Shown here: one piece after another, positions 17,734 to 48,211 of the stretch
Position numbering within the stretch: position 1 is the stretch's first letter
How the letters are laid out: each line of letters opens with the position of its first letter
The notes under the pieces: generated by a model
What the model saw: the letters and a program-made list of their open reading frames with translations, nothing else
What the model was told of the DNA's origin: nothing
Database searches by the model: none
Position numbers and translations under genes: made by a program
Virus record (IMG/VR): IMGVR_UViG_3300032268_001296
Span: 48,198-112,197 of that record
Source: a virus
Strand: one strand, 5' to 3'
DNA length: 64,000 bases

Positions 17734-18330
17734 TTAGAAAGATTGTAAAAAAGTTCTTCTCCATCCTCCAGCTGTGCCAGTGCATACATATAAACCACTA
17801 CCACTAACTCTCAATTCTCCAAATTGTCCAGCTTGAGATGAAGCTCCACTGAATTGAGGCAATAAGACTTTGATTCCAGAATTAAATGATCCTCCACCGA
17901 AAGTATTAAATCCTTGATCTCCAAAAAAATTTTGAGCCCTTGAGCCAAAATTATTTATTGTATCTCCTCCTTCATTTTGGTCTCCAAAAGCATTTGTTAG
18001 ACAATTTACACCAAAAGTATTTTGTTGAGCATCTTGCCCAAACTCATTATTAAGAGATGAATTTCCAAAATAATTAGTTGCGAAACCTCCAAAATCATTA
18101 GTTGATGCTATAACACCAAAACTATTATTTGATGCTCCATTACCAAAACTTGCAGCAGCTATATTGCTCGCGAATGTCTTAATTCCACTTATAGTTTGTG
18201 CGCCAGTTCTAGTAACAACATTAGCTCCATCCCAATTGACTGCTGCATTATTACCCAATGTTATATTGGTACCACTTTGATTTAATAAATACTGAAAAGT
18301 AGTATTAACTGGATTTGGACCTAAGTTCAT
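17734..18330 (-). CDS. small tail-fibre-like protein with NxFG repeats
   Basis: VTRTGAQTISGIKTF, about ten xxFG (mostly NxFG) repeats, C-terminal GELRVSGSGLYVC..WRR. Confidence 0.6.
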   Translation of the reverse strand: MNLGPNPVNTTFQYLLNQSGTNITLGNNAAVNWDGANVVTRTGAQTISGIKTFASNIAAASFGNGASNNSFGVIASTNDFGGFATNYFGNSSLNNEFGQDAQQNTFGVNCLTNAFGDQNEGGDTINNFGSRAQNFFGDQGFNTFGGGSFNSGIKVLLPQFSGASSQAGQFGELRVSGSGLYVCTGTAGGWRRTFLQSF

Positions 18331-18352
18331 TCTTTTATTTTTACACTTATTA

Positions 18353-19540
18353 TTATATATCGTTCCAATTAACAGTTATGTTTTGCCATAAAAAGTTTAA
18401 ATTATTCCAAGTAATAGCATTTGGAATATTTCTCTTCATGAGAAATCCACCAGTTTCATTAGCTTCAAAAGAGAAATCAGCATTGAATGAAATAGTATTA
18501 TTAACTGTTGAAGAAAAACTTAAATTTTCTAGCTTTGCATTTTCTATTCTATAAAAACCTGTAACTAATCTATCAGAATCTCTAAAAGATACTTCAAAAG
18601 AATAACCGCTTTCACTTGTTAGTATAGATTGAAATTGTCCACTTGATATTCCAGACACTAAGCAAGATATTCCAGCTTTTCCATTAACTGGATATTCTAA
18701 TTTGCGACCATAAACATAATTGCTGCCAAGACCATATAAATCAGTTCTAGATAAATCCAAATTTAAATCAAAACTCTGCAATATTGGATTTCCTACAGCA
18801 TCTAATGTTATACCTCCTACTTGCAGATTGTTTAGTTGAAATGAGCTATTATTAGATACGACTACTGGAGGATTGAATTCGTTTCTTAGTTTTGGATCAT
18901 TGGATATATATCCATCTTTTAAACTATCATATAATCCAGAAAGATCTAAAAATCCAGATCCACTATTGTTTCCAGATATACTGTTAATTGCTGGAATAGA
19001 TATTCTTCCTCCAGTTATATTTTCGAATCTAACATTAGAAGCAGAAAATCCAACATCCACAACTGGCACAGAATTTAAATTAAATGAAACAGAATAACTG
19101 TTTAAGAAGCAATTGCCAAAAGTTAAAGCTTGCATTCCGCTAAAATTAACTGAAGAAGCTGGCTTTTTAAAATCATCAAATCCATCTTTAATATCTTCTG
19201 GATCAACGATTACATATATGTTTTGATCTCTATTTTTAAGATCTCTAACGCATGGCGCATATCCAGATCCGCTAGCATTAAATCCAAACAATATCTCATT
19301 GCTGCAATATGGATTTAAGTAGTAACTTAAACTTACATTCGCTTGTGGCGCTCTAACAATATGATTTACAGCATAAGACTGGCTTCCTACTTGTTTTATC
19401 TTTTGGTGCTCGTTTGAAATAGAAAAATCACACTTTTGAACGAGAGGAAATAATCTTGCAGTATCTCCTGTTGTTTTCCAAGCTGGAAAATCTCCCATTG
19501 CGATAAACGCAGAATTACTTTTTAATACTTGTCGATTCAT
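18353..19540 (-). CDS. tail protein, paralogue of the major tail tube protein
   Basis: Aligns by eye with 33623-34759 (VQKCDFSIS..VSLSYYL vs VQSANYNFS..LDFSYYL; FLNSYSV..SVPVV vs FLSDYTL..SLPTV). Confidence 0.7.
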   Translation of the reverse strand: MNRQVLKSNSAFIAMGDFPAWKTTGDTARLFPLVQKCDFSISNEHQKIKQVGSQSYAVNHIVRAPQANVSLSYYLNPYCSNEILFGFNASGSGYAPCVRDLKNRDQNIYVIVDPEDIKDGFDDFKKPASSVNFSGMQALTFGNCFLNSYSVSFNLNSVPVVDVGFSASNVRFENITGGRISIPAINSISGNNSGSGFLDLSGLYDSLKDGYISNDPKLRNEFNPPVVVSNNSSFQLNNLQVGGITLDAVGNPILQSFDLNLDLSRTDLYGLGSNYVYGRKLEYPVNGKAGISCLVSGISSGQFQSILTSESGYSFEVSFRDSDRLVTGFYRIENAKLENLSFSSTVNNTISFNADFSFEANETGGFLMKRNIPNAITWNNLNFLWQNITVNWNDI

Positions 19541-20484
19541 GTTCCTGTAGGTATTATGCCCAGTGGGTCTTCAATTAGATTGATTTCAATATTATGGGAA
19601 TCTAAGTAGTTCCAAGAATGACTCCAAGATGGAGCGTAAAAAACCTTCGGTCTATTATAAACAGATGGTATCTGATGTAAAAATCTTCTATACCCAGCTT
19701 TATTTTCTAAAAAGTGCATTATAGACTTAGCTTCAATTGTTGGTATATTTGTGAATTTATAAGATAGGTTTACTGGAGCCAAATGTTTTCTAGTTTTGAT
19801 TCTTTGAATAAATGAATTCTTAAATTCTATTTTATCTACTTTAATCTGAACATCATTTTGAAGACCGATATCTGGTTCAAAAAAGAAAGATTGAGTCCAC
19901 TTTGAACTTGATCCAGTTGGACCGTCTATGCTTGGCGAAGACGAAGTGTGATCTCCTGAACAATAATAATAGTTGTTTAATTTGTTGCTGCTTATGCCGC
20001 TATAAATTATATCATACTTTTTATATGATCTTCCTGTTGACCAATGCTGCAAACCAGAGTTTATAAATGTCATTCCAGACCAATTTAATAAAGTCGGAGC
20101 TTGATTAACATCAATTGATATTGCCACTTCATAGTGGTTTTTATTAATGTGATTTACTGCATAATTATCAGTTACTCCACTGATTGGCTTATAAAAAGCT
20201 GAAGCATCAGAGAATCTATATAATTCACATCCAGACTTTGACTCTATAAAATTTACAAGTTTTTGAGAATCAAATTGATTTAAATCAAATCTTAATTCAA
20301 ACTTCGCATCTAGACTATTTATTGATAATGGAATTAAATTATAGTATCCATCTTGAGTTTCATAAACGTTTGCTTTAGAAGAAAACGAAACTCTAGATCC
20401 ATAAACTGGACTATATGTTAATCCAGTAATTCTATTTCCAGAACTAAGTAATATGTTATTACTTCTATCGTAAAATGTACTCAT
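19537..20484 (-). CDS. minor tail protein (lambda gpM-like, duplicated domain)
   Basis: Two similar halves (PVYGS..LVNFIESKSG and PDIG..IMHFLENKAG); downstream of tape measure. Confidence 0.55.
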   Translation of the reverse strand: MSTFYDRSNNILLSSGNRITGLTYSPVYGSRVSFSSKANVYETQDGYYNLIPLSINSLDAKFELRFDLNQFDSQKLVNFIESKSGCELYRFSDASAFYKPISGVTDNYAVNHINKNHYEVAISIDVNQAPTLLNWSGMTFINSGLQHWSTGRSYKKYDIIYSGISSNKLNNYYYCSGDHTSSSPSIDGPTGSSSKWTQSFFFEPDIGLQNDVQIKVDKIEFKNSFIQRIKTRKHLAPVNLSYKFTNIPTIEAKSIMHFLENKAGYRRFLHQIPSVYNRPKVFYAPSWSHSWNYLDSHNIEINLIEDPLGIIPTGT

Positions 20485-21272
20485 GAATGTCCTATATAGT
20501 TTAATGTTAATTTAACTCCACCATCTGCCGAGCTTGATAAAGATTCAGAAACTAAAGATGCTTTTGGAATTGTTAACTGTTGAAGAACAGTGGAGTTATC
20601 TCTGGATCTAATTGCAAATGATACTGTTTTGTTTTGGCGAGAGTTTAAAAATCCAGTACTGTTAGATAAGAAAGCATCGTCCACATCTATTTGAACAGAA
20701 GCGGAGTATTCTACAACTGGCATCGTTACTATTTCTTTTGGCAAGATAGATCCTATTGAATAAATTGGTATCCTATCTATTTTAATAGAATAATCAAAAC
20801 CAACAACTCTATTCGTAGAAGTATTGTCGCATGTGACAGATATAGATCCTTGATTTGGAATATGAATCGCTGGAGAAGCAATAGATCCAGATGCATTTTT
20901 TGTTCCAGTCACCATATCATCATAAACAACAATATTGCTTGTGATTTTTGGAATAGATCCGACCGCGCAATTAACTAAGTATTCAGTTAAGTATCCACTG
21001 CGAAATCCATAGTTATTGCCATCGTAATTTATACTTCCGCTTATATTGTTTTCTCCAGTATAATTAATCAATCCGCCGCTGTGTATTAAGTTTTGCGATA
21101 TTGATACTTTTTGTTGTGGAGGACCACTAACAACAGTTTGGCCAACTGAATACCCAAGAGCTTTTAAAACGTTAGAAGATTGAGAATACGAAAATTCTAC
21201 ATTCTCTACACCAATTACTTCTTGGCCAGATATAAATAGTTTGTTTTCGTAATTTGAAATTTGTCCAAACAT
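20481..21272 (-). CDS. tail-tip/tube-fold protein
   Basis: GYLTEYLVNCAVGSIPKI resembles tube GFLSDYTLDLAVGSLPTV; follows tape measure. Confidence 0.6.
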   Translation of the reverse strand: MFGQISNYENKLFISGQEVIGVENVEFSYSQSSNVLKALGYSVGQTVVSGPPQQKVSISQNLIHSGGLINYTGENNISGSINYDGNNYGFRSGYLTEYLVNCAVGSIPKITSNIVVYDDMVTGTKNASGSIASPAIHIPNQGSISVTCDNTSTNRVVGFDYSIKIDRIPIYSIGSILPKEIVTMPVVEYSASVQIDVDDAFLSNSTGFLNSRQNKTVSFAIRSRDNSTVLQQLTIPKASLVSESLSSSADGGVKLTLNYIGHS

Positions 21273-21273
21273 T

Positions 21274-24200
21274 TTACTTTCTCAATGAGCCTCCCAATCT
21301 CTTTTCGTCTTGAATAACTTTAAGAACAACATCTTTGATTTGTCGTGCAAGCTGTTGTTTTTGTTCTGATGCGCCTCCATCGGTTGTTTGAGAAGATTTG
21401 CCAGTTGATCCATCAACATTGATGGTGATATTTCCAGCTGCGCTAGAAGCTTCAATAAGCTCGTCAAGCTTGGCGATGAGCTTCTCGTTCAACTCTTCAG
21501 TCTTTTCTTCTGTGACGATGCTTCCTGCGCCAGCATTGAGCGCTTGTAGATTACCAGCACCAATGTTTTGAGCAGCAGAGCGATTCATAATGAATTCGCC
21601 GCCTGAAAGCATTGCTGGAACTGTGTCGATTCCAGCTCTGAAAGGAATTGAACCTCCAGTTGCAAATCTTTCGTTTGCGCGTTCTTCTATATACTGTCCT
21701 TGCGCGTCAAATGGACCAGTAGTGAATGCTGGTATGTTATTATTATAAACACCATTATTAGATCCTCCAAAATTTAATGGAGAAACTCCTAAACCTCCCA
21801 AAGCAGAATTTACTTCATTTATTTGATCATTATCATATGGATTCACATTATATCCATTTGGAGCATTTTTATTTTTTGATGTTGAATATGATCCCCCAGA
21901 ACTAAATAAATTAGATAAACCACCTTTTCCTTCAAAACCACTCCAAATTCCTTTAGCCGCATCAGTTAATCGTGCTGTTCCAGTTGCACCAGATCCAGCG
22001 TAAGCCTTAAAGAATCCAGATCCAGCAGCTAATACCACCGACAATATGAGTTGCTTTTTCAGTGCATCTTTTTCCGCTTCTGCTTGTTTTCTTGCTTCAG
22101 CTTGAGCTTGCATTTCTTGCATATACAAACCAAAAGCTTGTTCTTTCGCAGCTCTAGTTGCTTCAGCTTGAGGACTGTTATTGCGTCCAAAATTTGTCAA
22201 TCTAACACTTTCTGGTTCCAAGTTTATAGAAGCATAATTTCCTTGATTTATTATCTGATCTCTAGATCCAGAAGTATATCCTTGAGTTGCAAACTTAAGT
22301 AAGTTGCGAGTTCCTTGAATTCCGCCAAGTCCATAAGTTCCTGGAGTAAAGAAACCTCCTTGACCACTTTGTATCATTCCTCCTTTTGCGTAACCGCCTA
22401 ATGTTCCATTATTGATTGCTTCTAAAAATTGAGGTCCATATTTACCAACTGACTTTTTGTTGATAACATATTCGCCGCCCATTAACATTGCAGGGACATC
22501 ATCTTTGGTTCCCGATCCACCTGAAATCATTCCTCCAGAGGCTTTGCCATTTCCTGCAAAAATTTTAGAAATGGATGAAAATACTCCTGAAGATGAATTT
22601 GGATTTGATCCAAGAATCGAATCTATAGCATTAGACATTAATTTCTTGTTCAATTGTCTTACAAAATCTAAAGCTCCAGCTCTAAGAGTATCACTTAATG
22701 ATTTTCCACCTTCAATAGCTTCAGAAATACCATCTACTAAATTATTTTTAAATTGAACGGAAGCATCAACGATTGTCTTATTAAGCTCCAACGTTCTTTC
22801 TTCGTTAGTTTTACTAAACTCTTCTGCAAACAACTGAGGGATTGTTTTTACCTGTCTTTTTCTCGCTATTCTTGCCGCTTCTTCTGGGCTTTGTCCTCTT
22901 TGCTGATTAAGAGTTTCTATTTCATAAGCAATTTCAGCGTTTCTTCTTCCAGATATAGAAGTTAATTTTTCTAATTCTAAATCTTGAATTTTTCGATCAA
23001 TGATATCTGTAGAATCAAGCAGAGATCTTCTAAACATTTCTAAAGCTGATATAACTGGCTCTATTGCTCCAGCTTCTCTTGTGCGAGCATCTGCTGCCGC
23101 TTGGGATGATTCAGCGTCTAATTGAAGACTTTCAGATTCTTGTTTCAATTTTAGGATAAAGTCTTTGATAGCTTGATTATCTTCTTCATTAAATCTAGTC
23201 GCGCCAATAAGGTTTTCAGCTTCTGTTATTAAGCTGCTCATAGTTTTCGCGCTTTCAAAAGCATTCCTATATGTCATTGCTGAAATATCATCTGTTGGTT
23301 TTGCTAAACCCAACAATTCCCCCCTTTTTTCTTCGAGCATTTTATTATAATTTGCAGCATTTTGCACAGCCACAGTATTAGCTTCAATCGCAGCGATTTG
23401 AGCGTCTATTACTCTAATTTCTTCAGTTGATCTACCTAATTTTGAAGCTTGTAATTGAGAAATTCGCTGAGTATTTGAAAACTCAGATCTTCTTGAAGAT
23501 ATGTCTATACCAAAAGCTCTTTGTTGGGAAGCTCTTTGTGCGGAAGAGATTATATCTTTTATTGTTGATGCTTGGTTTTTATATTCCTCTGTTTTTTGTT
23601 GTTGAGTTTTTAAATCTTCCTTATCTAAATTATATTTCTTTAGAAGATTATCTAAAATCTGTTCATTTTCTTTTCTCTGAGCTTCTGTGAGATTAGTTCC
23701 AGTACCCAACAATATATTTATTTCTCCTAGTAATTTAGTAACTGTATCTTTATTTTTGAAATCATCTTCTGAAAAAGTTTTTAATTGTTCTTCTAGCTTA
23801 ATTGTTTGTTTTTTATCTGCTACAAGCAATTTAGCTTTATCAATCTGTCCTTTGAGAAGATTAGAAGTTTCGTCTATTAATTTTCTATCTAAATCGCGCA
23901 AAGCTATTTTATTCTCTAAACTTCTAATATCTTTTTCGCTTAAATTATTAAGCTCCTTGGCAGAAAGCAATTGAAGATCTAATTCTTGAGTAGTTCTTTG
24001 TTGTGCAATTGAAAGATCAATAGTATTCTTTAATTGATTTTGAGCATAAGAAATATTCATTAAATCTAATGCTTCTTTAGCAGTATCTGCAAATGCATTC
24101 TTAAGATCTATAGTTGCATCATATATTCTAAGAATTTCACTTTTTACAGCTTCGCTATTTATGTCAAATCCTATTTTTTGATCATCCGTTAATTGGCTTA

Positions 24201-27200
24201 AAATTGCATTTTGAATCATTCCTATCCCTGTATTTGGATTTGGAGTAGATCCACTTTTTAAATTTTCCAAATCAGACATTATATCTTGTCTAGATTTACC
24301 AATAAACTCTTTTCCAATAGTTCCTGTTGGAGATAAATCTAAATTTCTTTTTGCATTTTTTAACTGCGATGATGTAAATATTAATTTAGAAAAAGAACCT
24401 GTTAATTCATCTACTTCTTTAACAGTTATTTTCCCATCTGCTGATTTTTTTCTTATTTCATCCCACATTCTGTTATAGCTCACACCAGCAGCGTCTGCAT
24501 TTTTAACAACATCTACTAAACTTTTTTCTAATTCTCCAGCTGTAAAGAAATCTGAGCCTTCAAAATCAGCCATAAAACGAGCTGTCATGCTCTCTCTTGC
24601 TGCTCCTCTGACTAAACCTATTGCCGAAGATTCTATTTTCTTTTTTCCTGGTTCAGATAAATTTTCAAATGTAAATGCCGCATTTTTCACCGCTTCGGAC
24701 ATCTTGGCTATATTAGCTGTAGCTGCTTTAGTAATACCATAATATTCATCCATTATTTTTCCACCAGCCGAAAAAGATGCTATTGCTCCAGCTGCTGCTA
24801 ATCCATATGGCCCTAACTTTGCTAACGCTGGACCTACTTTTCCGCCAATTTGGCCTAAACCTTGAATAGCGAATGCTGCTGTCACAAAACCTCCAGCACT
24901 TTCTGATACTATATTAGTATATTTTGCAAGTTGTGATGAAGCATCACTTGTAGCTCCAGTCAATATACTAAATGCTCCTTGCAACGCAAAGATAGTTCCA
25001 AGCATATCTTTTTGTCCACCTTGTGCTTGAACAGTAGCTTCTTTACCAGTTAAGGTTTTGCCTTTACCAAAAGCTCCTTTTGACTGTTCAATGATTGCTT
25101 TTCGAGTTGCATCTGAAGATTTTTTAAGAGCTTCTCTATCATCTTCTAGAGCTTTTATTCTATCTTGCGCTGCTTTTTTGTTTTTACCTCTAGCTTGTTT
25201 TTCATCAGCCGTTGCTTTTCTTAATTCAGTTATAAGATCTGCATAAGCTTTTCCATAATTTCTAGATTCTTCCGCTAAAGCATCACTTCTTGTTTTACCT
25301 ACGTATCCAGAAATGTCTGGCGCATCTGCATAATTCGGCACAAATCCACTTGCCGCACCATATGTTTGCGGATTCATGCCTTCTTTTCTTGCTCTATTGA
25401 TTCCTTGAAATCCACCTGCTGGTTCATCACGGCGATTAGCAACCATTAATCCCATTGGATTAGCCGCGTTTTTAAGAGATGAATTTTTGTCTATGTAGAT
25501 TTGAGAAGCAGGAACTCCCGCAGCCATTTCACGGTTAACTGCATCTTTAAGAGGATTTGCAAAATTTGGCAAGAAGCCTTTTGCGGCTGTTTTCTTTTTT
25601 TTGCTGTCTATATAGTTGAGCATTTTATCAACTACGTCTCTAGCTGGAGATCCAGTAATTCGCGCAAAACCTGGATCAATAAGACTAGCAACTCCACCAT
25701 TAGATGCCATTTCTCTCAATAAAGTCAGCGATCCAATCGGATCTGAAGGATAAGTTGAAAACTTACTCAAGTAATTCTCAGCGTTTTTATTAAGTATATA
25801 ATTAGATCCATGTAAATCAGTAAGATCTAAACCTTTGGTTTTTACAGCGGAGCGTAGAGTTCCAAGTCCAAACAATCTAGCTTTGTCAGAACCAAGTGCT
25901 ATCTTTCCAAGTTTACCAGATATAATTTCTTTTCTTATTGCTCCTCGTCTGTTGGATTCATTGAAACCAGACAATGTTTTTGGACCATAAATACCTGGGA
26001 TGTTCAAATATCTATTGATATACTGACTGATCAACCATTCCTGAGAAAGTGCGTTTTTTGGACCATCTTTATAAAACTTCTTAACACCAACATCTATTCC
26101 CTCTTTTGTTCCAAGTCTTAAAAATCTAGCTTCTGCACCAGATCCAATTTCTCTACTTTTGCTAACAAAGTTTGGGATGTAACCCTTAGCGGCATTAGGA
26201 GATTTTCTAGCTTTGGATTGTTGACTTATTTGAGATAATATTTTTGGAGCGATGTCTCCATCGTTCATTGACTTTTTGATAAGAGTATTAACTTGACCTT
26301 GAAAATTTTCCGTAGACCCACCTCCTCTTTTCGCATCACCTCTTACAGCTTTTACTCCCAACATTTGATTCATTGCAGCTGGGTTAGTAAAATCAAATGG
26401 TCTATTTTCATTTTTTGGATCAAATGAATCAGAAAGACCTTTCATTGTAGTCAATGCAGCTTTACTAGCAGCTTCAAAAAGCTGACCTTCTGCACCCGCA
26501 GGAAGAATTCCTCCTGTGGATGTAGATTTAAGATTTCCTAATTGATCTGCAAATTCTCCCGCTTGCATTCCAGAATAAAGTCGCCCATATAAAGATTGAG
26601 CGAGCGTCACGATTGGACCAGCAAAAAGTTTATTGATTTCTGAAGATATTTGTTCGAAATTCTTTTTAGTAGGAACTCCAGTTTGTTGAATATTGCTTAA
26701 AATGATTTGATCATCATCTAAAATACCTCGCGGCTTATTTTTTTTAAAATCAGAACCTTTTAGTTTTGCCGAAACATATCCAGAAGCATCTCCATTCCTC
26801 GGAGTGACTAAAGCGATTCCTCCTAAAGTATTTGCGTCAATTTTGAAATCGAGAGCGCCTTCTTTAAGTTTCTGCTGTCTTACCTTATCTTCTGTTTGTT
26901 TTCTTTGTGTAGCAATAGATGGATTTCTTTTAAGAACGTTATCAATATTTGATTGGTAAGTTTCTAGGCCATTAGGGAAAACGAATTTTTTTCCACCTGG
27001 TTCTTTTCTGTAGCTTTCTAAATCTGGATAATATTGTCTAATAGTGTCTGCTAAATCAGCAAAGTTTGGTATAAATCCAAAAGAAAGATTTTTTATATAT
27101 TTCCCAAAATCATCAATTTTTCTAGGTCTTCCATATTTATTCGATCTATATTTATCAGTATTGATTAAATCTTGTTTTAACGTTTTTGCTTTTGAAAAAT

Positions 27201-29544
27201 TTCCTCTATCTGATTCATCAGAATGAACTAGCAAACCATTTACTTTGATATTATCTTTATTTTTTGTCCAAACATCTAAAGGTAAATTACGACCATAATT
27301 TTCTATATTCGCTCTTAAAAATTTTAATTTTACATCACTATCGTCCCAAGACCCACTTTTAACCTCTAAAAGAGAAGTTGGACCTTTGAAGCCGTCCACT
27401 GCTGAATTTTCCTTTCCGAACATTCCTCCAGTAGTATATCCATACTGCTTAGCGATTCTTTTCTCATAATCATTAGTTGATTCTCCTTTATTTCTAGGGA
27501 CGTACAATTTTTGATATCCATTTCCAATCAAGTTAACATTATCGTCTTTTGATAATCTTCCATCTGAAGATTGAGATATATTAATTTTTGGCACAAGAGT
27601 CGTACTAAAATATTTTACTATTTCAGAAACTTTTGCAAAATTTGGAATCAATCCGCCAGATGCAGTGATCTTCTTAGCTCCAGATGGCAAGCCCATAGAG
27701 CGAACCATGTCTCTGTTAAAGATAGCTGTTCCGCCACTTCCTCCAAAATTAGGAACCGCATATTCTCCAGTATGAGCTACAATAGATCCTTTTTTGCCTT
27801 GACCAAAATTAAAATTAGGAATAACAACTGGACGATCTCCAGCTTTTGCACCACCAACACCTTTTTTAATGTCGGATGATTCTTGCGATACAGCAGGCAT
27901 GTATCCGCCAGCCGCTTTAGGAACTCTTAAGCCTTCTCCAGAGCTTCTTACTCCTTGTTGATAAAGAGGAGCTGCTAGCGAGCTTGCTGTAGAAGCCATT
28001 CTTCTCATTGCTGCTTCTTGCATTACAATAGCGTCAGACATGACTTTGATCTGAGCCGTGCGATTTCCTTCTAATGCAAAAAGTTGACGCTGAAGATTGA
28101 TATTCTTAGAAAGAGCTGAAGCAATAGACTGTTCAACATTTTGAATCTCTTTTGCTGCTTTACCAATTCCAAAGAAACCTTTTAAGCTTGCAAAACCAAA
28201 TTGCGCAAGATCTTTTGAAAGCTTTAAGATAATAGCTGCAAATAAAGCTAAGCCTGGACCTGTAACAAGATTTCCAATACCTTTAGCTAAACCTCTGAAA
28301 ACATCTCCCAACGCACTTTCTTCGCCAAGAATTTTTTGGATACTTTCTAGAAGGCCATTAAAGAATCCAAGTAAACTTTTAGCACTGTCAGTGATGCCAA
28401 TTTTTCCCAATGTAGCTCCAAGCTGTTCTGCACTTAAAGATGTCTTATTGATTAAAGCAGCTAATGTAACATTTAGAGCCGCATTCTTTTCATAAGCTTG
28501 ATTGGTGCTTTTCAAAGATACTTCGGTAGCTTTAAAAGCTACTGAAGATTGACTGCTCAAATCCTCTAAAGTTGCTAATAATTTATCAATCTGGAATCCG
28601 CCACCAACTTTTTCAGTAATCTCTGCGAGCTGTACTTGATTAAGACTTTTAATTGTTGCCGCTAAGTTTTCGAGAAGTTTTGTAGCTGGCAGTATCTTGC
28701 CTTGAACATCTGTGACAGAAACTCCAAGCTGTTGTAAAGCTTCTAATGTATCTGTTCTTTGCAATCTTGTGAAGATCGTTTTAAACGAGTTACCAATAAC
28801 TGCTCCACCAACTGATGTCTTTTCTTGAACTGCCGTAATAATACCAACCAACTCATCAAAAGAAACTCCAGCCTGTTTCGCAACAGATGACGATCTCTTA
28901 AGACCTTCAATCAAATCCTTTTCAGAAACTGAATATTTTTGAGAAACAGTAACTAATTTGTTTAAAACTTCAGATGTTGTAATGCCTGTGCTTTTAAAAG
29001 CATTAACTGCCGCAGTTAAACCAGAAACAGATCTTTCTGCATCCAATCCAGAAAGGCGAGTTAGAATAAGAGCATCATTAATTCTTTTAAGAGACTCTTC
29101 AGTACTTAAACCTTGTCTAGCTAATTCAAGAGCGCCTTTTGCAACAGCATCAAATGATTGACCTGTATTTTTAGCTACGTTGAATAAAGAGTTTCCGAAT
29201 TTGTCTAATTCAGAAGAACTTTTTTGGAAGACAGAATTGATTTCTGTTAAAGACTTTTCAACTGCAATAGTGTTCTTAACCAAAGAACTAAAAGCGCTAG
29301 ATACACTATTAATAATACCAACAGAAGCTCCGAACGCAAATACGCGAGCATTTGCCGCTTCCATCGACTTAGTGAATTCGTCAGCTTGTCCAGTAATGCG
29401 GCCAAGAGGTTGAGCTAATGCATTAATTTGACGGGAATTCGTTCCCAAATTAATTTGAGCGCCCTTGCCCGCATTTTTCAATGCTGCTTGAATGCTTGCT
29501 TCTAACCCTGTTTGTGTTACTGGTATCTGAACTGACGCTGGCAT
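21274..29544 (-). CDS. tail tape measure protein (2756 aa) with embedded enzyme-like domains
   Basis: N-terminal TMP core (ELARQGLS, QAGVSFDELVGII, GNSFKTIFTRL), long helical region, C-terminal AxGG..DxVPAMLxGGE repeats; AAGGAG upstream. Confidence 0.9.
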   Translation of the reverse strand: MPASVQIPVTQTGLEASIQAALKNAGKGAQINLGTNSRQINALAQPLGRITGQADEFTKSMEAANARVFAFGASVGIINSVSSAFSSLVKNTIAVEKSLTEINSVFQKSSSELDKFGNSLFNVAKNTGQSFDAVAKGALELARQGLSTEESLKRINDALILTRLSGLDAERSVSGLTAAVNAFKSTGITTSEVLNKLVTVSQKYSVSEKDLIEGLKRSSSVAKQAGVSFDELVGIITAVQEKTSVGGAVIGNSFKTIFTRLQRTDTLEALQQLGVSVTDVQGKILPATKLLENLAATIKSLNQVQLAEITEKVGGGFQIDKLLATLEDLSSQSSVAFKATEVSLKSTNQAYEKNAALNVTLAALINKTSLSAEQLGATLGKIGITDSAKSLLGFFNGLLESIQKILGEESALGDVFRGLAKGIGNLVTGPGLALFAAIILKLSKDLAQFGFASLKGFFGIGKAAKEIQNVEQSIASALSKNINLQRQLFALEGNRTAQIKVMSDAIVMQEAAMRRMASTASSLAAPLYQQGVRSSGEGLRVPKAAGGYMPAVSQESSDIKKGVGGAKAGDRPVVIPNFNFGQGKKGSIVAHTGEYAVPNFGGSGGTAIFNRDMVRSMGLPSGAKKITASGGLIPNFAKVSEIVKYFSTTLVPKINISQSSDGRLSKDDNVNLIGNGYQKLYVPRNKGESTNDYEKRIAKQYGYTTGGMFGKENSAVDGFKGPTSLLEVKSGSWDDSDVKLKFLRANIENYGRNLPLDVWTKNKDNIKVNGLLVHSDESDRGNFSKAKTLKQDLINTDKYRSNKYGRPRKIDDFGKYIKNLSFGFIPNFADLADTIRQYYPDLESYRKEPGGKKFVFPNGLETYQSNIDNVLKRNPSIATQRKQTEDKVRQQKLKEGALDFKIDANTLGGIALVTPRNGDASGYVSAKLKGSDFKKNKPRGILDDDQIILSNIQQTGVPTKKNFEQISSEINKLFAGPIVTLAQSLYGRLYSGMQAGEFADQLGNLKSTSTGGILPAGAEGQLFEAASKAALTTMKGLSDSFDPKNENRPFDFTNPAAMNQMLGVKAVRGDAKRGGGSTENFQGQVNTLIKKSMNDGDIAPKILSQISQQSKARKSPNAAKGYIPNFVSKSREIGSGAEARFLRLGTKEGIDVGVKKFYKDGPKNALSQEWLISQYINRYLNIPGIYGPKTLSGFNESNRRGAIRKEIISGKLGKIALGSDKARLFGLGTLRSAVKTKGLDLTDLHGSNYILNKNAENYLSKFSTYPSDPIGSLTLLREMASNGGVASLIDPGFARITGSPARDVVDKMLNYIDSKKKKTAAKGFLPNFANPLKDAVNREMAAGVPASQIYIDKNSSLKNAANPMGLMVANRRDEPAGGFQGINRARKEGMNPQTYGAASGFVPNYADAPDISGYVGKTRSDALAEESRNYGKAYADLITELRKATADEKQARGKNKKAAQDRIKALEDDREALKKSSDATRKAIIEQSKGAFGKGKTLTGKEATVQAQGGQKDMLGTIFALQGAFSILTGATSDASSQLAKYTNIVSESAGGFVTAAFAIQGLGQIGGKVGPALAKLGPYGLAAAGAIASFSAGGKIMDEYYGITKAATANIAKMSEAVKNAAFTFENLSEPGKKKIESSAIGLVRGAARESMTARFMADFEGSDFFTAGELEKSLVDVVKNADAAGVSYNRMWDEIRKKSADGKITVKEVDELTGSFSKLIFTSSQLKNAKRNLDLSPTGTIGKEFIGKSRQDIMSDLENLKSGSTPNPNTGIGMIQNAILSQLTDDQKIGFDINSEAVKSEILRIYDATIDLKNAFADTAKEALDLMNISYAQNQLKNTIDLSIAQQRTTQELDLQLLSAKELNNLSEKDIRSLENKIALRDLDRKLIDETSNLLKGQIDKAKLLVADKKQTIKLEEQLKTFSEDDFKNKDTVTKLLGEINILLGTGTNLTEAQRKENEQILDNLLKKYNLDKEDLKTQQQKTEEYKNQASTIKDIISSAQRASQQRAFGIDISSRRSEFSNTQRISQLQASKLGRSTEEIRVIDAQIAAIEANTVAVQNAANYNKMLEEKRGELLGLAKPTDDISAMTYRNAFESAKTMSSLITEAENLIGATRFNEEDNQAIKDFILKLKQESESLQLDAESSQAAADARTREAGAIEPVISALEMFRRSLLDSTDIIDRKIQDLELEKLTSISGRRNAEIAYEIETLNQQRGQSPEEAARIARKRQVKTIPQLFAEEFSKTNEERTLELNKTIVDASVQFKNNLVDGISEAIEGGKSLSDTLRAGALDFVRQLNKKLMSNAIDSILGSNPNSSSGVFSSISKIFAGNGKASGGMISGGSGTKDDVPAMLMGGEYVINKKSVGKYGPQFLEAINNGTLGGYAKGGMIQSGQGGFFTPGTYGLGGIQGTRNLLKFATQGYTSGSRDQIINQGNYASINLEPESVRLTNFGRNNSPQAEATRAAKEQAFGLYMQEMQAQAEARKQAEAEKDALKKQLILSVVLAAGSGFFKAYAGSGATGTARLTDAAKGIWSGFEGKGGLSNLFSSGGSYSTSKNKNAPNGYNVNPYDNDQINEVNSALGGLGVSPLNFGGSNNGVYNNNIPAFTTGPFDAQGQYIEERANERFATGGSIPFRAGIDTVPAMLSGGEFIMNRSAAQNIGAGNLQALNAGAGSIVTEEKTEELNEKLIAKLDELIEASSAAGNITINVDGSTGKSSQTTDGGASEQKQQLARQIKDVVLKVIQDEKRLGGSLRK

Positions 29545-29589: not shown

Positions 29590-30567
29590 TCATCCCATTA
29601 ATTTCATCAAATCTTCCATATTCATACTGCCTCCATTTTTACTAAGCTCTTCTGAAAGACTAATTTTTTTAGCACTTGGATCAACAAACGATAAATCTTC
29701 TTTTGTTGCTCCGAAAACAGCAGTCGCTCCATTATCAGAATTTTTGAATTTTTCAGCAACCTTTCCAGAATTACGCTTGGATTCTGAGAATCTTAATACA
29801 TCAGATGGATTCTTTTTTATACTATCTGGTATGTCTTCGTTATATTGGAAGATGTTGAAGAATATTCTAGCGTATAAAGCAAGTTTCAATTGATAAACGG
29901 AAAGTTGAATGATGGGCTTTCCATAGAAAGAAAAAAGGTTTTCAGTTTGAGATAAATACATATTGAAGAAATCTCTCAAGACTGCGTGTTGAATATGATC
30001 TTCGTTTAATCTGTTGCTGCACATTTGATGCTGCTTTATCAAATAACCAATATCGTAATCATTTATTTCTGCAAAACTTTCTTCTGTAAATAAATGTTCT
30101 TTTAAAGAAGGATCTTTGTATATAATATAGCGAATAAATTCCTCATTAGATCTTGAAGATCCATAATCTTCAGCAGTTTTACCCACAACCTCTTTTCTTT
30201 TTACTTTAAGGATGTGAAGATCTTTTGATCTTTCGTCAATCGATTCTTGAGTTTTCTCTTTTTGAGAAGGAAGAACTAAATTAGATTTTGTCTGTTTAAG
30301 ATTAGAAACCTCACTTTCTAATTCAGCTATTTTTCTATCGTCTTCCTCCGACCATAAACCATCGGCAACCAACTGATCAAGCATTTGCTTTTCAGTTGGT
30401 ATGCCTTTTTTGATGGCTATGTTTTTGTATTTTTCGTAGTACTTATGAATATATCTTTGATCGCGAATAGAAAAATGCTTTAGATAAACAGGTTGACCTT
30501 TGTAATCAAACTCTGTATATCCATCAAATATCTCTCCTACGATAGCGATATATTCTTCTTCGCTCAC
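29590..30567 (-). CDS. hypothetical protein, probable tail assembly chaperone
   Basis: 325 aa, directly upstream of tape measure. Confidence 0.5.
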   Translation of the reverse strand: MSEEEYIAIVGEIFDGYTEFDYKGQPVYLKHFSIRDQRYIHKYYEKYKNIAIKKGIPTEKQMLDQLVADGLWSEEDDRKIAELESEVSNLKQTKSNLVLPSQKEKTQESIDERSKDLHILKVKRKEVVGKTAEDYGSSRSNEEFIRYIIYKDPSLKEHLFTEESFAEINDYDIGYLIKQHQMCSNRLNEDHIQHAVLRDFFNMYLSQTENLFSFYGKPIIQLSVYQLKLALYARIFFNIFQYNEDIPDSIKKNPSDVLRFSESKRNSGKVAEKFKNSDNGATAVFGATKEDLSFVDPSAKKISLSEELSKNGGSMNMEDLMKLMG

Positions 30568-31325
30568 AGTTCGTTACTTTCTAATCTTGTCATCAAAGAA
30601 TCAAATGAATCTTTGTCAGAAGCTTGATTAAAGAACCAGAAAGCTAGAATTGTCGCAGCCTTCTTAGTAATCAAGAAATACAACGGATCTTCAGATTCTT
30701 CTCTACGATAATATTCTTCAAGACGATCTTCAAAATCCCCACTGCCAAAATATGAAGATGGAGATTCTTCCCCTTCCTCTTGAATGTAAGTCAACATAAT
30801 AACATACCAAAGAATAAGTCTATTTTGAGCTTTAACATCTGCGGTATGATCAAAGAGTGATTGATAATTAGATTCAAATTCTACAATTTGGCGACGAACA
30901 TTTGCGAGTTCAGTTGTAATTTCTTCAACTCGCGCCTTTTGCTTGTCAGTCTTGTTTTGAATAATCTCTAATCTTGAATACTCATTTTGAATATCAAAAA
31001 CCTTTTTGTAAGAATCTACCAAAGACTTAGCATCATCTTCGCTCATTAAGCCTCCTGTATCACTATACTTTTTAGCCAACATAGCTTTTGTCAGGATGCC
31101 CTTTTTGACACACTTACTCATTTCAACACTAAACTCAAGTTCAGCTTCTTCTAATTCTCTACGAGAAGGTCTCTTCAATTTAATCGTAACTGGAACTGAA
31201 GTTTTGATCTTCTTTTTGACCGTGATTTCTTCTTTGGTCTTCTTGTCAATCTTTGTTGTTACTTCTTCCTTTTCGATTTCCTTATCAACACTGAAGCTAT
31301 ATAGCTCTTTGATTTTGTTTTCCAT
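30564..31325 (-). CDS. hypothetical protein, probable tail assembly chaperone
   Basis: 253 aa, coiled coil; position upstream of tape measure. Confidence 0.5.
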   Translation of the reverse strand: MENKIKELYSFSVDKEIEKEEVTTKIDKKTKEEITVKKKIKTSVPVTIKLKRPSRRELEEAELEFSVEMSKCVKKGILTKAMLAKKYSDTGGLMSEDDAKSLVDSYKKVFDIQNEYSRLEIIQNKTDKQKARVEEITTELANVRRQIVEFESNYQSLFDHTADVKAQNRLILWYVIMLTYIQEEGEESPSSYFGSGDFEDRLEEYYRREESEDPLYFLITKKAATILAFWFFNQASDKDSFDSLMTRLESNEL

Positions 31326-47413: not shown

Positions 47414-48211
47414 TCAAAGAACGATCTCTCTTAATGAAATATCTCCTGCTAAAATGCCTCCTTCTTCCATGGAAATATTTTGAGAAACAATGCGCGAATT
47501 TGATGACATGGATAAAGGCTGAATAAATATAGAGCTATTATCATCAGCTTTAACGTCTATACTTATCACATCTCCATATCCAGTATAATCAATAAAATTG
47601 CCTATGTTTGTTGCTTTGATTGATAATTCTTTTTCAACACTGTCTAAAAACATTTTTTGAGCAAACTTTTCCCCCAAATTAAATACAGGAGTTCTATTAC
47701 AAGAAACTTGGTAAGATATGGAAGAATAGTTTTTATCAGATAGTAAATCGCCATTAGTGATTAATGTTTTGTACCCATGAGATAAAGAGCTGCTTGGAGG
47801 TTCATTTGTGGTGCCAACAAACGGTTGATTGATTGGGGGATTGTTGCTTATAAATTCCGCAGAGATTAAGATCGGCGCAAATGGAGATATATCAATTCTT
47901 GCGCTACTGCAATAACAAGAAGAGAATTGTGATGATCCTATTTTTAATAAAGCTGCTCTATCTCCAGTAAGAGCCTCAAACAAAAGACTTGGAAATGGAT
48001 ACTGACTTGGTTTATCTGCCACCATATTAATAGATATTTTTGTAGCGGTAGGTCCACCAATTCGGAAGTTATTGTTTTGATTTGGAGCTAAAATGCGAGA
48101 TGGTTCTAAAGATGCTGCATAAGATATGCTTACAGATTTTGCGACAGCGAAATAATCTTCTCCAAAATATTCTGCAATCACTGGTACTTGATTGTGTTTT
48201 ATTACTGGCAT
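47414..48211 (-). CDS. tail-tube-fold paralogue outside the tail cluster
   Basis: ISYQVSCNRTPVFNLG resembles FDYSIKIDRIPIYSIG of 20481-21272 and LSIPLSRSPLQRLG of the tube. Confidence 0.5.
   Translation of the reverse strand: MPVIKHNQVPVIAEYFGEDYFAVAKSVSISYAASLEPSRILAPNQNNNFRIGGPTATKISINMVADKPSQYPFPSLLFEALTGDRAALLKIGSSQFSSCYCSSARIDISPFAPILISAEFISNNPPINQPFVGTTNEPPSSSLSHGYKTLITNGDLLSDKNYSSISYQVSCNRTPVFNLGEKFAQKMFLDSVEKELSIKATNIGNFIDYTGYGDVISIDVKADDNSSIFIQPLSMSSNSRIVSQNISMEEGGILAGDISLREIVL

Follow-up and report, generated by a model that had tools for sequence, protein, structure and literature searches.

What is a domain resembling a protein kinase doing in the middle of a phage tape measure protein, and could it still work as an enzyme? 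The question is raised by a locus in the 64,000-nucleotide stretch of DNA analysed here (the window; positions 48,198 to 112,197 of the virus record IMGVR_UViG_3300032268_001296), to which all coordinates below refer. A single open reading frame (ORF) on its minus strand, gene P0001 at 21274..29544, encodes a tape measure protein (TMP) of 2,756 amino acids, and residues 1128-1319 of this protein (25588..26163, minus strand) make up what AlphaFold2 modelling, structure matches, ESM features and conservation together point to as a minimal protein-kinase-like domain. We find that this domain is an optional, swappable cassette within an array of cassettes in the TMP. Our analysis suggests an active, accessory kinase (or ATPase) that is probably delivered at infection; the catalytic residues of the predicted kinase being all kept, it may reach the host as a ready-made kinase brought in by the phage.

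Catalytic positions and predicted fold of residues 1128-1319

A preliminary description of this DNA, made from the letters of the sequence, had listed a series of kinase-like motif strings and placed them inside a tape measure protein. Both points hold. All the strings are present in one frame and in the order given, on the minus strand, where the translation of 25588-26163 is free of stops and corresponds to TMP residues 1128-1319 (the plus strand of the same interval has no ORF), and the ORF matches PF10145 (E 2e-32) as well as ten PHROG tape-measure families (down to E 2e-49).

Conservation was followed in 97 aligned kinase copies from about 88 giant metagenomic TMPs, with identities down to about 25%. 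The Gly-rich loop GSGAEARF (26122..26145; this and the following motifs are all on the minus strand) falls in the turn that joins model strands 19-22 and 26-34, and its positions are G1134 (95/97), G1136 (97/97), A1139 (Gly or Ala in 96/97) and F1141 (85/97). The beta-3 lysine K1155 of VGVKKF (26080..26082), on model strand 37-44, is Lys in 96 of the 97 copies, and the helix-C glutamate E1169 of SQEW (26038..26040), in model helix 52-66, is Glu in 94 and Asp in three. The catalytic loop DLHGSNYILN (25789..25818) lies between model helix 106-122 and strand 136-138; D1243 is kept in 96 copies, N1248 in all 97 and N1252 in 87, and the position two residues after the catalytic Asp, H1245 in this protein, is His in 75 copies, Asn in 10 and Tyr in 8, and not Lys. 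Finally, the metal-binding DxG (D1290-P-G1292, 25669..25677), equivalent of the DFG motif, comes directly after model strand 173-175, with D1290 in 96 copies and G1292 in 88.

The columns conserved in at least 90% of the copies are G1134, G1136, G1153, K1155, F1157, E1169, D1243, N1248, G1283, D1290 and G1292, and besides them the G, P and N of the two linker peptides that flank the domain. The conserved columns are, in other words, the signature positions of kinases and little else, and as a sequence pattern the set of motifs is far beyond chance. The Lys, Glu, Asp, Asn and Asp on which the preliminary description had made its proposal depend are kept in 94-97 of the 97 copies. Its more detailed pattern (GAEA..K..E..DLxxxN..IDxG) stands for the Lys, the Glu, the D-x4-N and the DxG, and has to be given up for the first element: the family-wide loop is GxGx[FY]GxF, and the GAEA of 25588-26163 is a local variant peculiar to close relatives. 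Comparison with an 80%-identical relative gives a dN/dS of about 0.19, and we count this value, along with the conserved positions, in favour of catalytic competence.

Two distances help to describe the domain. From N1248 to D1290 there are 22-68 residues (median 48), which makes an insert before the DxG. From the DxG to the downstream linker the median is only 29 residues, and because of this short distance there is no C-lobe beyond one helix.

The model came from the kinase segment aligned with 21 whole homologous TMPs. AlphaFold2 gave it a pLDDT of 80 and a pTM of 0.71, with a core at 85-97 and only the two flanking linkers below 50, and its elements follow one another in the order of a bilobal kinase: beta1-3, helix C, beta4-5, helices D/E, beta7-8. 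RIO kinases have an N-terminal helix and a flexible loop joining beta-3 to helix C; at these places the predicted model has only a 5-residue helix (13-17) before beta-1, which lies within the linker, and a short connection from beta3 to helix C. Foldseek against the PDB returned kinases only, led by RIO2, Bud32 and PRPK (E about 5e-5), and in an all-against-all search independent of Foldseek (48,161 chains) the top 50 were all protein-kinase-like, with 225 chains at Z of at least 5. In this search (VIA wide) RIO2 reached Z 9.4 over 148 aligned residues with an rmsd of 3.4; Rv3197 and ADCK3 were likewise at 9.4, and Bud32 at 9.1, followed by Ark1 and APH(2'') at 8.7, ArkI at 8.1, macrolide phosphotransferases at 7.5-7.6, OspG at 7.5 and NleH at 7.1. 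A second-look comparison placed MSMEG_1954 at 10.9, PRPK at 9.7, RIO2 at 9.5 and Bud32 at 9.4, so that MSMEG_1954/Rv3197 is the best structural match of the kinase model; PRPK, with 143 of its 226 residues aligned at 20% identity, shares with the model the Bud32/PRPK similarity and the minimal C-lobe. In ESM features the nearest named cluster is that of the OspG kinase (0.96; 174 of 256 features in common), then come APH, ABC1/RIO1, YrbL and Kdo, all of one clan, and Verrucomicrobiota clusters are among the neighbours.

A kinase-fold match, the other point on which the preliminary proposal hung, was therefore found, the AlphaFold2 model matching kinases only. The neighbouring cassettes of the same protein give no match in the same pipeline, and we regard them as an internal control for this result. 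The structural Z values of the model do not, however, separate the kinase subfamilies, whose scores lie within about 1.5 of one another, and RIO and Bud32 rank level with kinases of the ABC1/UbiB type. The label "Bud32/RIO-like" used in the preliminary description is apt for a minimal atypical kinase and fails as family membership, there being no profile match at E<=10. A search of a viral structure library with the kinase model also returned kinases only, with no tape measure protein among the matches. As a separate observation, BFVD entry R4T6E8, an uncharacterised protein of 1,100 amino acids from Haloarcula hispanica tailed virus 1, is a kinase-fold match at E 9e-4.

The profiles of known kinase families tell another story. 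RIO1, OspG (PF22303), APH, Kdo and Pkinase (PF00069) profiles do not match the cassette even at E<=10, and the RIO1 model PF01163 has no match at this threshold in the whole phage record, although control genomes did score. Ser/Thr kinases of the PF00069 type have a Lys two residues after the catalytic Asp, an activation segment that ends in APE, and helices F-I; these traits are missing from the cassette, since there is no profile match, the residue after the catalytic Asp by two is not Lys, and a median of only 29 residues follows the DxG. Aligned with hhalign, the cassette profile gave nothing with E. coli WaaP, and with E. coli WaaY the catalytic loop only, at a probability of 1.5% that is not significant and that we do not use as evidence. 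One row of the sequence-profile searches, named "integrin-linked kinase", was discarded, the match being to the ankyrin part of that protein.

As to its distribution, a word-indexed search found 25 giant TMPs with the kinase module, and a full HMMER scan, over 1.84 billion representatives, turned up 77 clusters, nearly all of 2,000-5,350 residues, and no cellular kinase. No relative of the module was found among isolated phages (INPHARED) or in 185,579 species genomes; a scan of metagenome contigs gave one locus only, a copy of L004, and viral scans with the two most divergent kinase copies matched only those copies themselves. A stand-alone form was not found in the full HMMER scan or in a near-length search, the short matches being linker-bearing fragments or tiny contigs. 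In the literature we found nothing relevant on a kinase in a tape measure protein, nor on the linker peptide. We conclude that the cassette is a compact (190-residue), sequence-dark new family with the kinase fold, and that its carrier is new as well.

A linker-fenced array within the tape measure protein

Why should the boundaries of the domain be so sharp? Kinase copies begin and end at linker peptides, and these peptides recur along the protein. In the source TMP the motif G-[FYL]-[IVM]-P-[NA]-[FYV] occurs at residues 546, 630, 823, 1121, 1323 and 1400, and the six linkers delimit an array of five modules (residues 546-1406; 25327..27909, minus strand). The linker upstream of the kinase is GYIPNFV (residues 1121-1127; 26164..26184, minus strand), and a linker stands at this N-terminal edge in 93-94 of the 97 kinase copies; the downstream one is GFLPNFA (residues 1323-1329; 25558..25578, minus strand). 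Across 188 related TMPs the consensus is A-A-x-G-[FY]-[IV]-P-N-[FY]-A, and 1,005 linkers were counted, at 2-18 per protein, against 32 in shuffled sequences. Such a peptide could be a recombination site, a processing site, or a contact with a chaperone or with the tube.

When the TMPs were cut at their linkers and the pieces clustered, at least 40 cassette families were obtained, and their order varies from protein to protein. The kinase is carried by 26 of 120 related TMPs (22%), a set gathered with the entry segment of the array and hence blind to the kinase, and 11 TMPs hold two or three diverged copies of it. The most direct view of an exchange comes from a public contig of 5.2 kb, which over 870 bases of cassette 3 has 20 differences (97.7% identical) and which has just 46 bases instead of 25570-26215, an interval that spans the kinase from one linker to the next. 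The same contig has 391 other bases where cassette 2 lies (interval 27086-27632), and a contig of another run has 478. All the break points of exchange in the public contigs are at linker peptides. The contigs compared (X2, X3, X4 and X6) are relatives and not the source phage itself, and the habitat labels attached to them (lake water, freshwater) come from runs with small shares. Among the public runs listed as containing such sequence there was none of RNA.

The other modules of the array are less readily described. Cassette 3 (residues 833-1120; 26185..27048, minus strand) belongs to a cassette family, family 3, present in 16 TMPs, and cassette 2 (residues 640-822; 27079..27627, minus strand) is replaced by other sequence in related phages. 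AlphaFold2 modelled the two with a pLDDT of 51, cassette 2 at about 32 and cassette 3 confident only in part; a structural search with them found no match (best Z 4.4), and cassette 3 had no ESM match. The idea that they might be PD-(D/E)XK nucleases found neither a confident model nor a match in fold or features, an outcome that speaks neither for a nuclease nor against one. The last module of the array (70 residues, 1330-1399; 25348..25557, minus strand) belongs to cassette family 1, found in 63 TMPs. Across the family, the last place in the array is nearly always taken by a conserved module of about 77 residues. We note that the terminal module begins NPLKDAVNREMAAGVPASQIY..., is highly conserved, and closes the array in 63 TMPs.

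The protein that carries this array is a TMP of the TP901 type (PF10145), as indicated by its profile match, its giant size and its place in a tail gene block; the PhageMin_Tail core occupies residues 124-314 (28603..29175, minus strand), and more than 160 clusters of giant TMPs are related to it. The protein is asymmetric in charge, with a pI of 9.4-10.2 over the N-terminal 1,400 residues, which include all the cassettes, versus 5.9 over the C-terminal 1,350. In the relatives P0118, P0172, P0174, P0009 and P0016 the C-terminal half has VanY, GH19, phage lysozyme, NlpC/P60 or SLT domains, and these wall hydrolase domains lie 700-1,000 residues C-terminal of the last linker, outside the cassette array. 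In the C-terminal part of the source TMP, the motif D-x-V-P-A-M-L-x-G-G-E-[YF]-[VI]-x-N is found twice (21583-21627 and 22459-22503) and is kept across relatives, and a hydrophobic segment (21991-22050) lies between its two copies.

The virus record itself is a linear contig of 112,197 bp with 36% G+C and an estimated completeness of 87%. Downstream of the TMP, a minor tail protein of PHROG is matched by the gene at 19537-20484 (E 6e-8), and for eight of the ten genes neighbouring the TMP (17734-21272 and 29590-31325) PHROG gave no match; little of this phage's tail module can be annotated. The only hint of a host is the assignment of one related TMP to a Bacteroidota metagenome-assembled genome (MAG).

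What the domain may do at infection

How, then, could such a domain act? If the predicted active site is functional, ATP-Mg would be bound through K1155/E1169, N1248 and D1290, and the gamma-phosphate would be transferred (or hydrolysed) with D1243 as the catalytic base. In a Gram-negative host ATP exists only in the cytoplasm, so that the need of a kinase for ATP points to the inner membrane, or beyond it, as the place of action. Taken together with this need, the precedent of gp96 of the Thermus phage P23-45, a TMP with an enzyme of its own that is discussed below, favours a virion-borne kinase acting before phage gene expression. A route can be drawn from phage T5, whose TMP is a metastable trimer in the tube with its C-terminus in the tip, the C-terminal enzyme leaving first, and whose authors remark that refolding could be needed (PMC10038345). 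With the orientation of the T5 protein, the cassette array, in the basic third of this giant TMP of siphovirus type, would be head-proximal and would leave last, next to the DNA. As a part of the TMP, the kinase domain would then travel within the tail lumen, non-native and metastable, exit just ahead of the DNA, refold at the cytoplasmic membrane or inside it, where there is ATP, and modify a host target before the phage expresses its genes, with take-over or counter-defence as the purpose. The target might be a protein or, judging from a charge of about +12, a polyanionic molecule. We therefore put forward the view, to which we would give about an even chance, that the cassette may be a catalytically competent, ATP-using, minimal protein-kinase-like domain borne by the TMP and acting on a host target at entry.

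Several points weigh against this proposal. Three copies of a folded domain of 190 residues are too large for a tube lumen of about 4 nm, and one has to suppose that the domain unfolds and refolds. RIO and Bud32, the nearest structural neighbours, serve for the most part as ATPases or switches. The structural Z values of 9-11 are moderate, the fold would depend on one predicted model, and no kinase was found in Pfam, PHROG and PDB-sequence searches, the query being either the segment by itself or a profile of 7 sequences. As to the precedent, that such a part of the TMP enters the cytoplasm is, for P23-45, a proposal and not a demonstrated fact.

Some of these points lead directly to other explanations. 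The domain might be a nucleotide-dependent switch or ATPase, for instance one that senses cytoplasmic ATP and releases or rearranges the TMP channel for DNA entry. Its closest structures (RIO2, PRPK/Bud32, the ABC1/UbiB type) fit this well, RIO and Bud32 being mainly ATPases in complexes, and so do the missing substrate-binding C-lobe and the fact that the domain is physically part of the protein that conducts the DNA. We nevertheless think it rather improbable: a core step of DNA entry should be indispensable, whereas 78% of the related TMPs and a near-identical phage do without the cassette, and the two or three diverged copies in some TMPs are better explained as diversified effectors. It may also be asked whether the kinase acts late, in the producer cell, as part of the free TMP and on host proteins, phage proteins or the TMP itself, and is inert in the virion. 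The TMP is made in an ATP-rich cytoplasm where the domain can fold, and folded domains do not fit the tail lumen. However, a late soluble enzyme has no obvious reason to sit between linkers in the ruler among swappable cassettes, and the enzyme fused to the P23-45 TMP is used at entry (PMC10770324), so this explanation, too, seems to us quite unlikely.

A question that concerns the target more than the timing is whether the substrate is a protein at all. It could be a small molecule, a lipid, a sugar or an RNA, as for APH, Kdo/WaaP and the archaeal RNA kinase Ark1: the structural neighbours include Ark1 (8.7), ArkI (8.1), APH(2'') (8.7) and macrolide phosphotransferases (7.5-7.6), the His two residues after the catalytic Asp replaces the Lys of Ser/Thr kinases, and 93% of the copies are strongly basic, with a median pI of 9.7 and a median charge of +12 (+14 in the source TMP). 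Yet the family-wide loop GxGx[FY]GxF is of the protein-kinase type, the Z values across subfamilies are too closely tied to choose between them, and the published phage kinases without a C-lobe were judged to be nearer to protein kinases (PMC5512222); on balance we hold a non-protein substrate to be unlikely. Least of all do we favour a non-catalytic spacer or pseudokinase that would add length or a binding surface to the ruler. The domain does lack a sequence-family match, and TMP length sets tail length, according to the work on phage TM4 (PMC1796659). In the 97 copies, however, the catalytic positions are kept in 94-97, against a remainder of the domain that has drifted to about 25% identity. 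Some of the catalytic positions are typically lost in pseudokinases, and this explanation is in our opinion most improbable.

A kinase acting at entry can also be seen as one case of something broader. The head-proximal third of the TMP might be an injected effector polyprotein, swappable by recombination, in which the linkers would serve as break points and as processing or hinge sites and the kinase would phosphorylate a host target, of defence or of take-over, in the first seconds of DNA entry and with no phage gene expressed; this is a tentative idea that we find possible and somewhat doubtful. If it were true, the tails of siphoviruses would deliver a customisable set of enzymes, much as secretion systems deliver effectors.

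Enzymes embedded in TMPs were long taken to be wall hydrolases, until the RNA polymerase fusion of P23-45, and the phage kinases known to us so far are made after entry. If our proposal is true, an intact, optional and exchangeable kinase in a ruler protein extends this single precedent, and suggests that the tails of long-tailed phages hold a varying complement of enzymes that act in the cytoplasm. The cassette is in any case a compact branch of the kinase fold to be characterised, and natural variants with and without it exist in lake metagenomes, so that a clean comparison would be possible given a cultured member.

The cassette among known systems

Among the families that share the fold, RIO, Bud32/PRPK and ABC1/UbiB (Rv3197, MSMEG_1954, ADCK3) are the closest in structure (Z 9.4-10.9 over 125-148 aligned residues), with the same order of Gly loop, Lys, Glu, D-x4-N and DxG and with no activation segment. 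The cassette differs from them by a longer insert before the DxG, a shorter C-lobe and a virion protein as carrier, and it has no KEOPS, ribosome or ubiquinone context (no Kae1 search was made in the phage record). In KEOPS, Bud32 is associated with Kae1 and Cgi121 and has a C-terminal tail that binds Kae1; the cassette comes to its end at a TMP linker some 30 residues past the DxG. OspG and NleH, effector kinases of type III secretion, offer another kind of likeness, as minimal kinases of 160-200 residues that, as proposed here for the cassette, enter a target cell by injection through a narrow conduit; they are, however, separate bacterial proteins aimed at eukaryotic cells, and PF22303 has no match to the cassette. 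The activation of OspG needs E2~ubiquitin, as the title of structure 4q5h has it. Among phages, T7 gp0.7 is a kinase that serves very early host take-over (PMC5512222); unlike the kinase proposed here, it is the product of an early gene, synthesised once the phage has entered, and the virion does not carry it, and no detectable similarity to the cassette was found.

The nearest published relatives in architecture may be the C-lobe-less kinases of the Ser/Thr/Tyr type that Iyer, Burroughs, Anand, de Souza and Aravind described in 2017 in the "polyvalent proteins" of phages and plasmids, mainly in (pro)phages of Bacteroidetes and Verrucomicrobia (PMC5512222). Like the cassette, these are truncated kinases with intact active-site residues, a lost C-terminal subdomain and an insert before the metal-binding Asp, and they are embedded in a giant multi-domain phage protein, which has been proposed to be injected with the DNA (PMC5512222). 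Their hosts may be set beside the one related TMP of a Bacteroidota MAG and the Verrucomicrobiota clusters among the ESM neighbours of our domain. The cassette nevertheless has two of four features of the polyvalent-protein kinases and lacks two. Their diagnostic Glu before strand 2 and Gln in the final N-lobe strand are not conserved in it, and it has [FY] and K-E at those places, the mapping of columns being our own reading of the published description: positions 1135 and 1138 of the Gly loop are variable or [FY], and the last N-lobe strand is I-x-K-E-[VI]-[IV], with Gln at 1206 in 11 of the 97 copies. No processing metallopeptidase, as in the polyvalent proteins, was seen with the TMP cassette, and the polyvalent-protein paper never mentions tape measure proteins (PMC5512222).

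Enzymes within ruler proteins are known in their own right. Peptidoglycan-hydrolase motifs occur in TMPs such as Tmp of mycobacteriophage TM4 (PMC1796659), and the TMP of T5, pb2, contains a C-terminal peptidase (PMC10038345). Like the kinase cassette, these enzymes are embedded in the ruler, and they are used at infection; they act in the periplasm or the wall and need no ATP. A further comparison is that with P23-45 gp96, a TMP with an N-terminal virion RNA polymerase that transcribes the pre-early genes (Chaban et al. 2024, PMC10770324). The differences are clear, since that enzyme is an RNA polymerase, is fixed rather than optional and has no linker-fenced array, and since its activity and presence in virions were shown by experiment, whereas the TMP kinase is known here from sequence and model. 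In both cases, however, a nucleotide-using enzyme, predicted in the present one, is found within the N-terminal portion of a giant TMP, and in gp96 it acts in the cytoplasm, is present in virions as part of the full-length TMP, and is used before phage gene expression.

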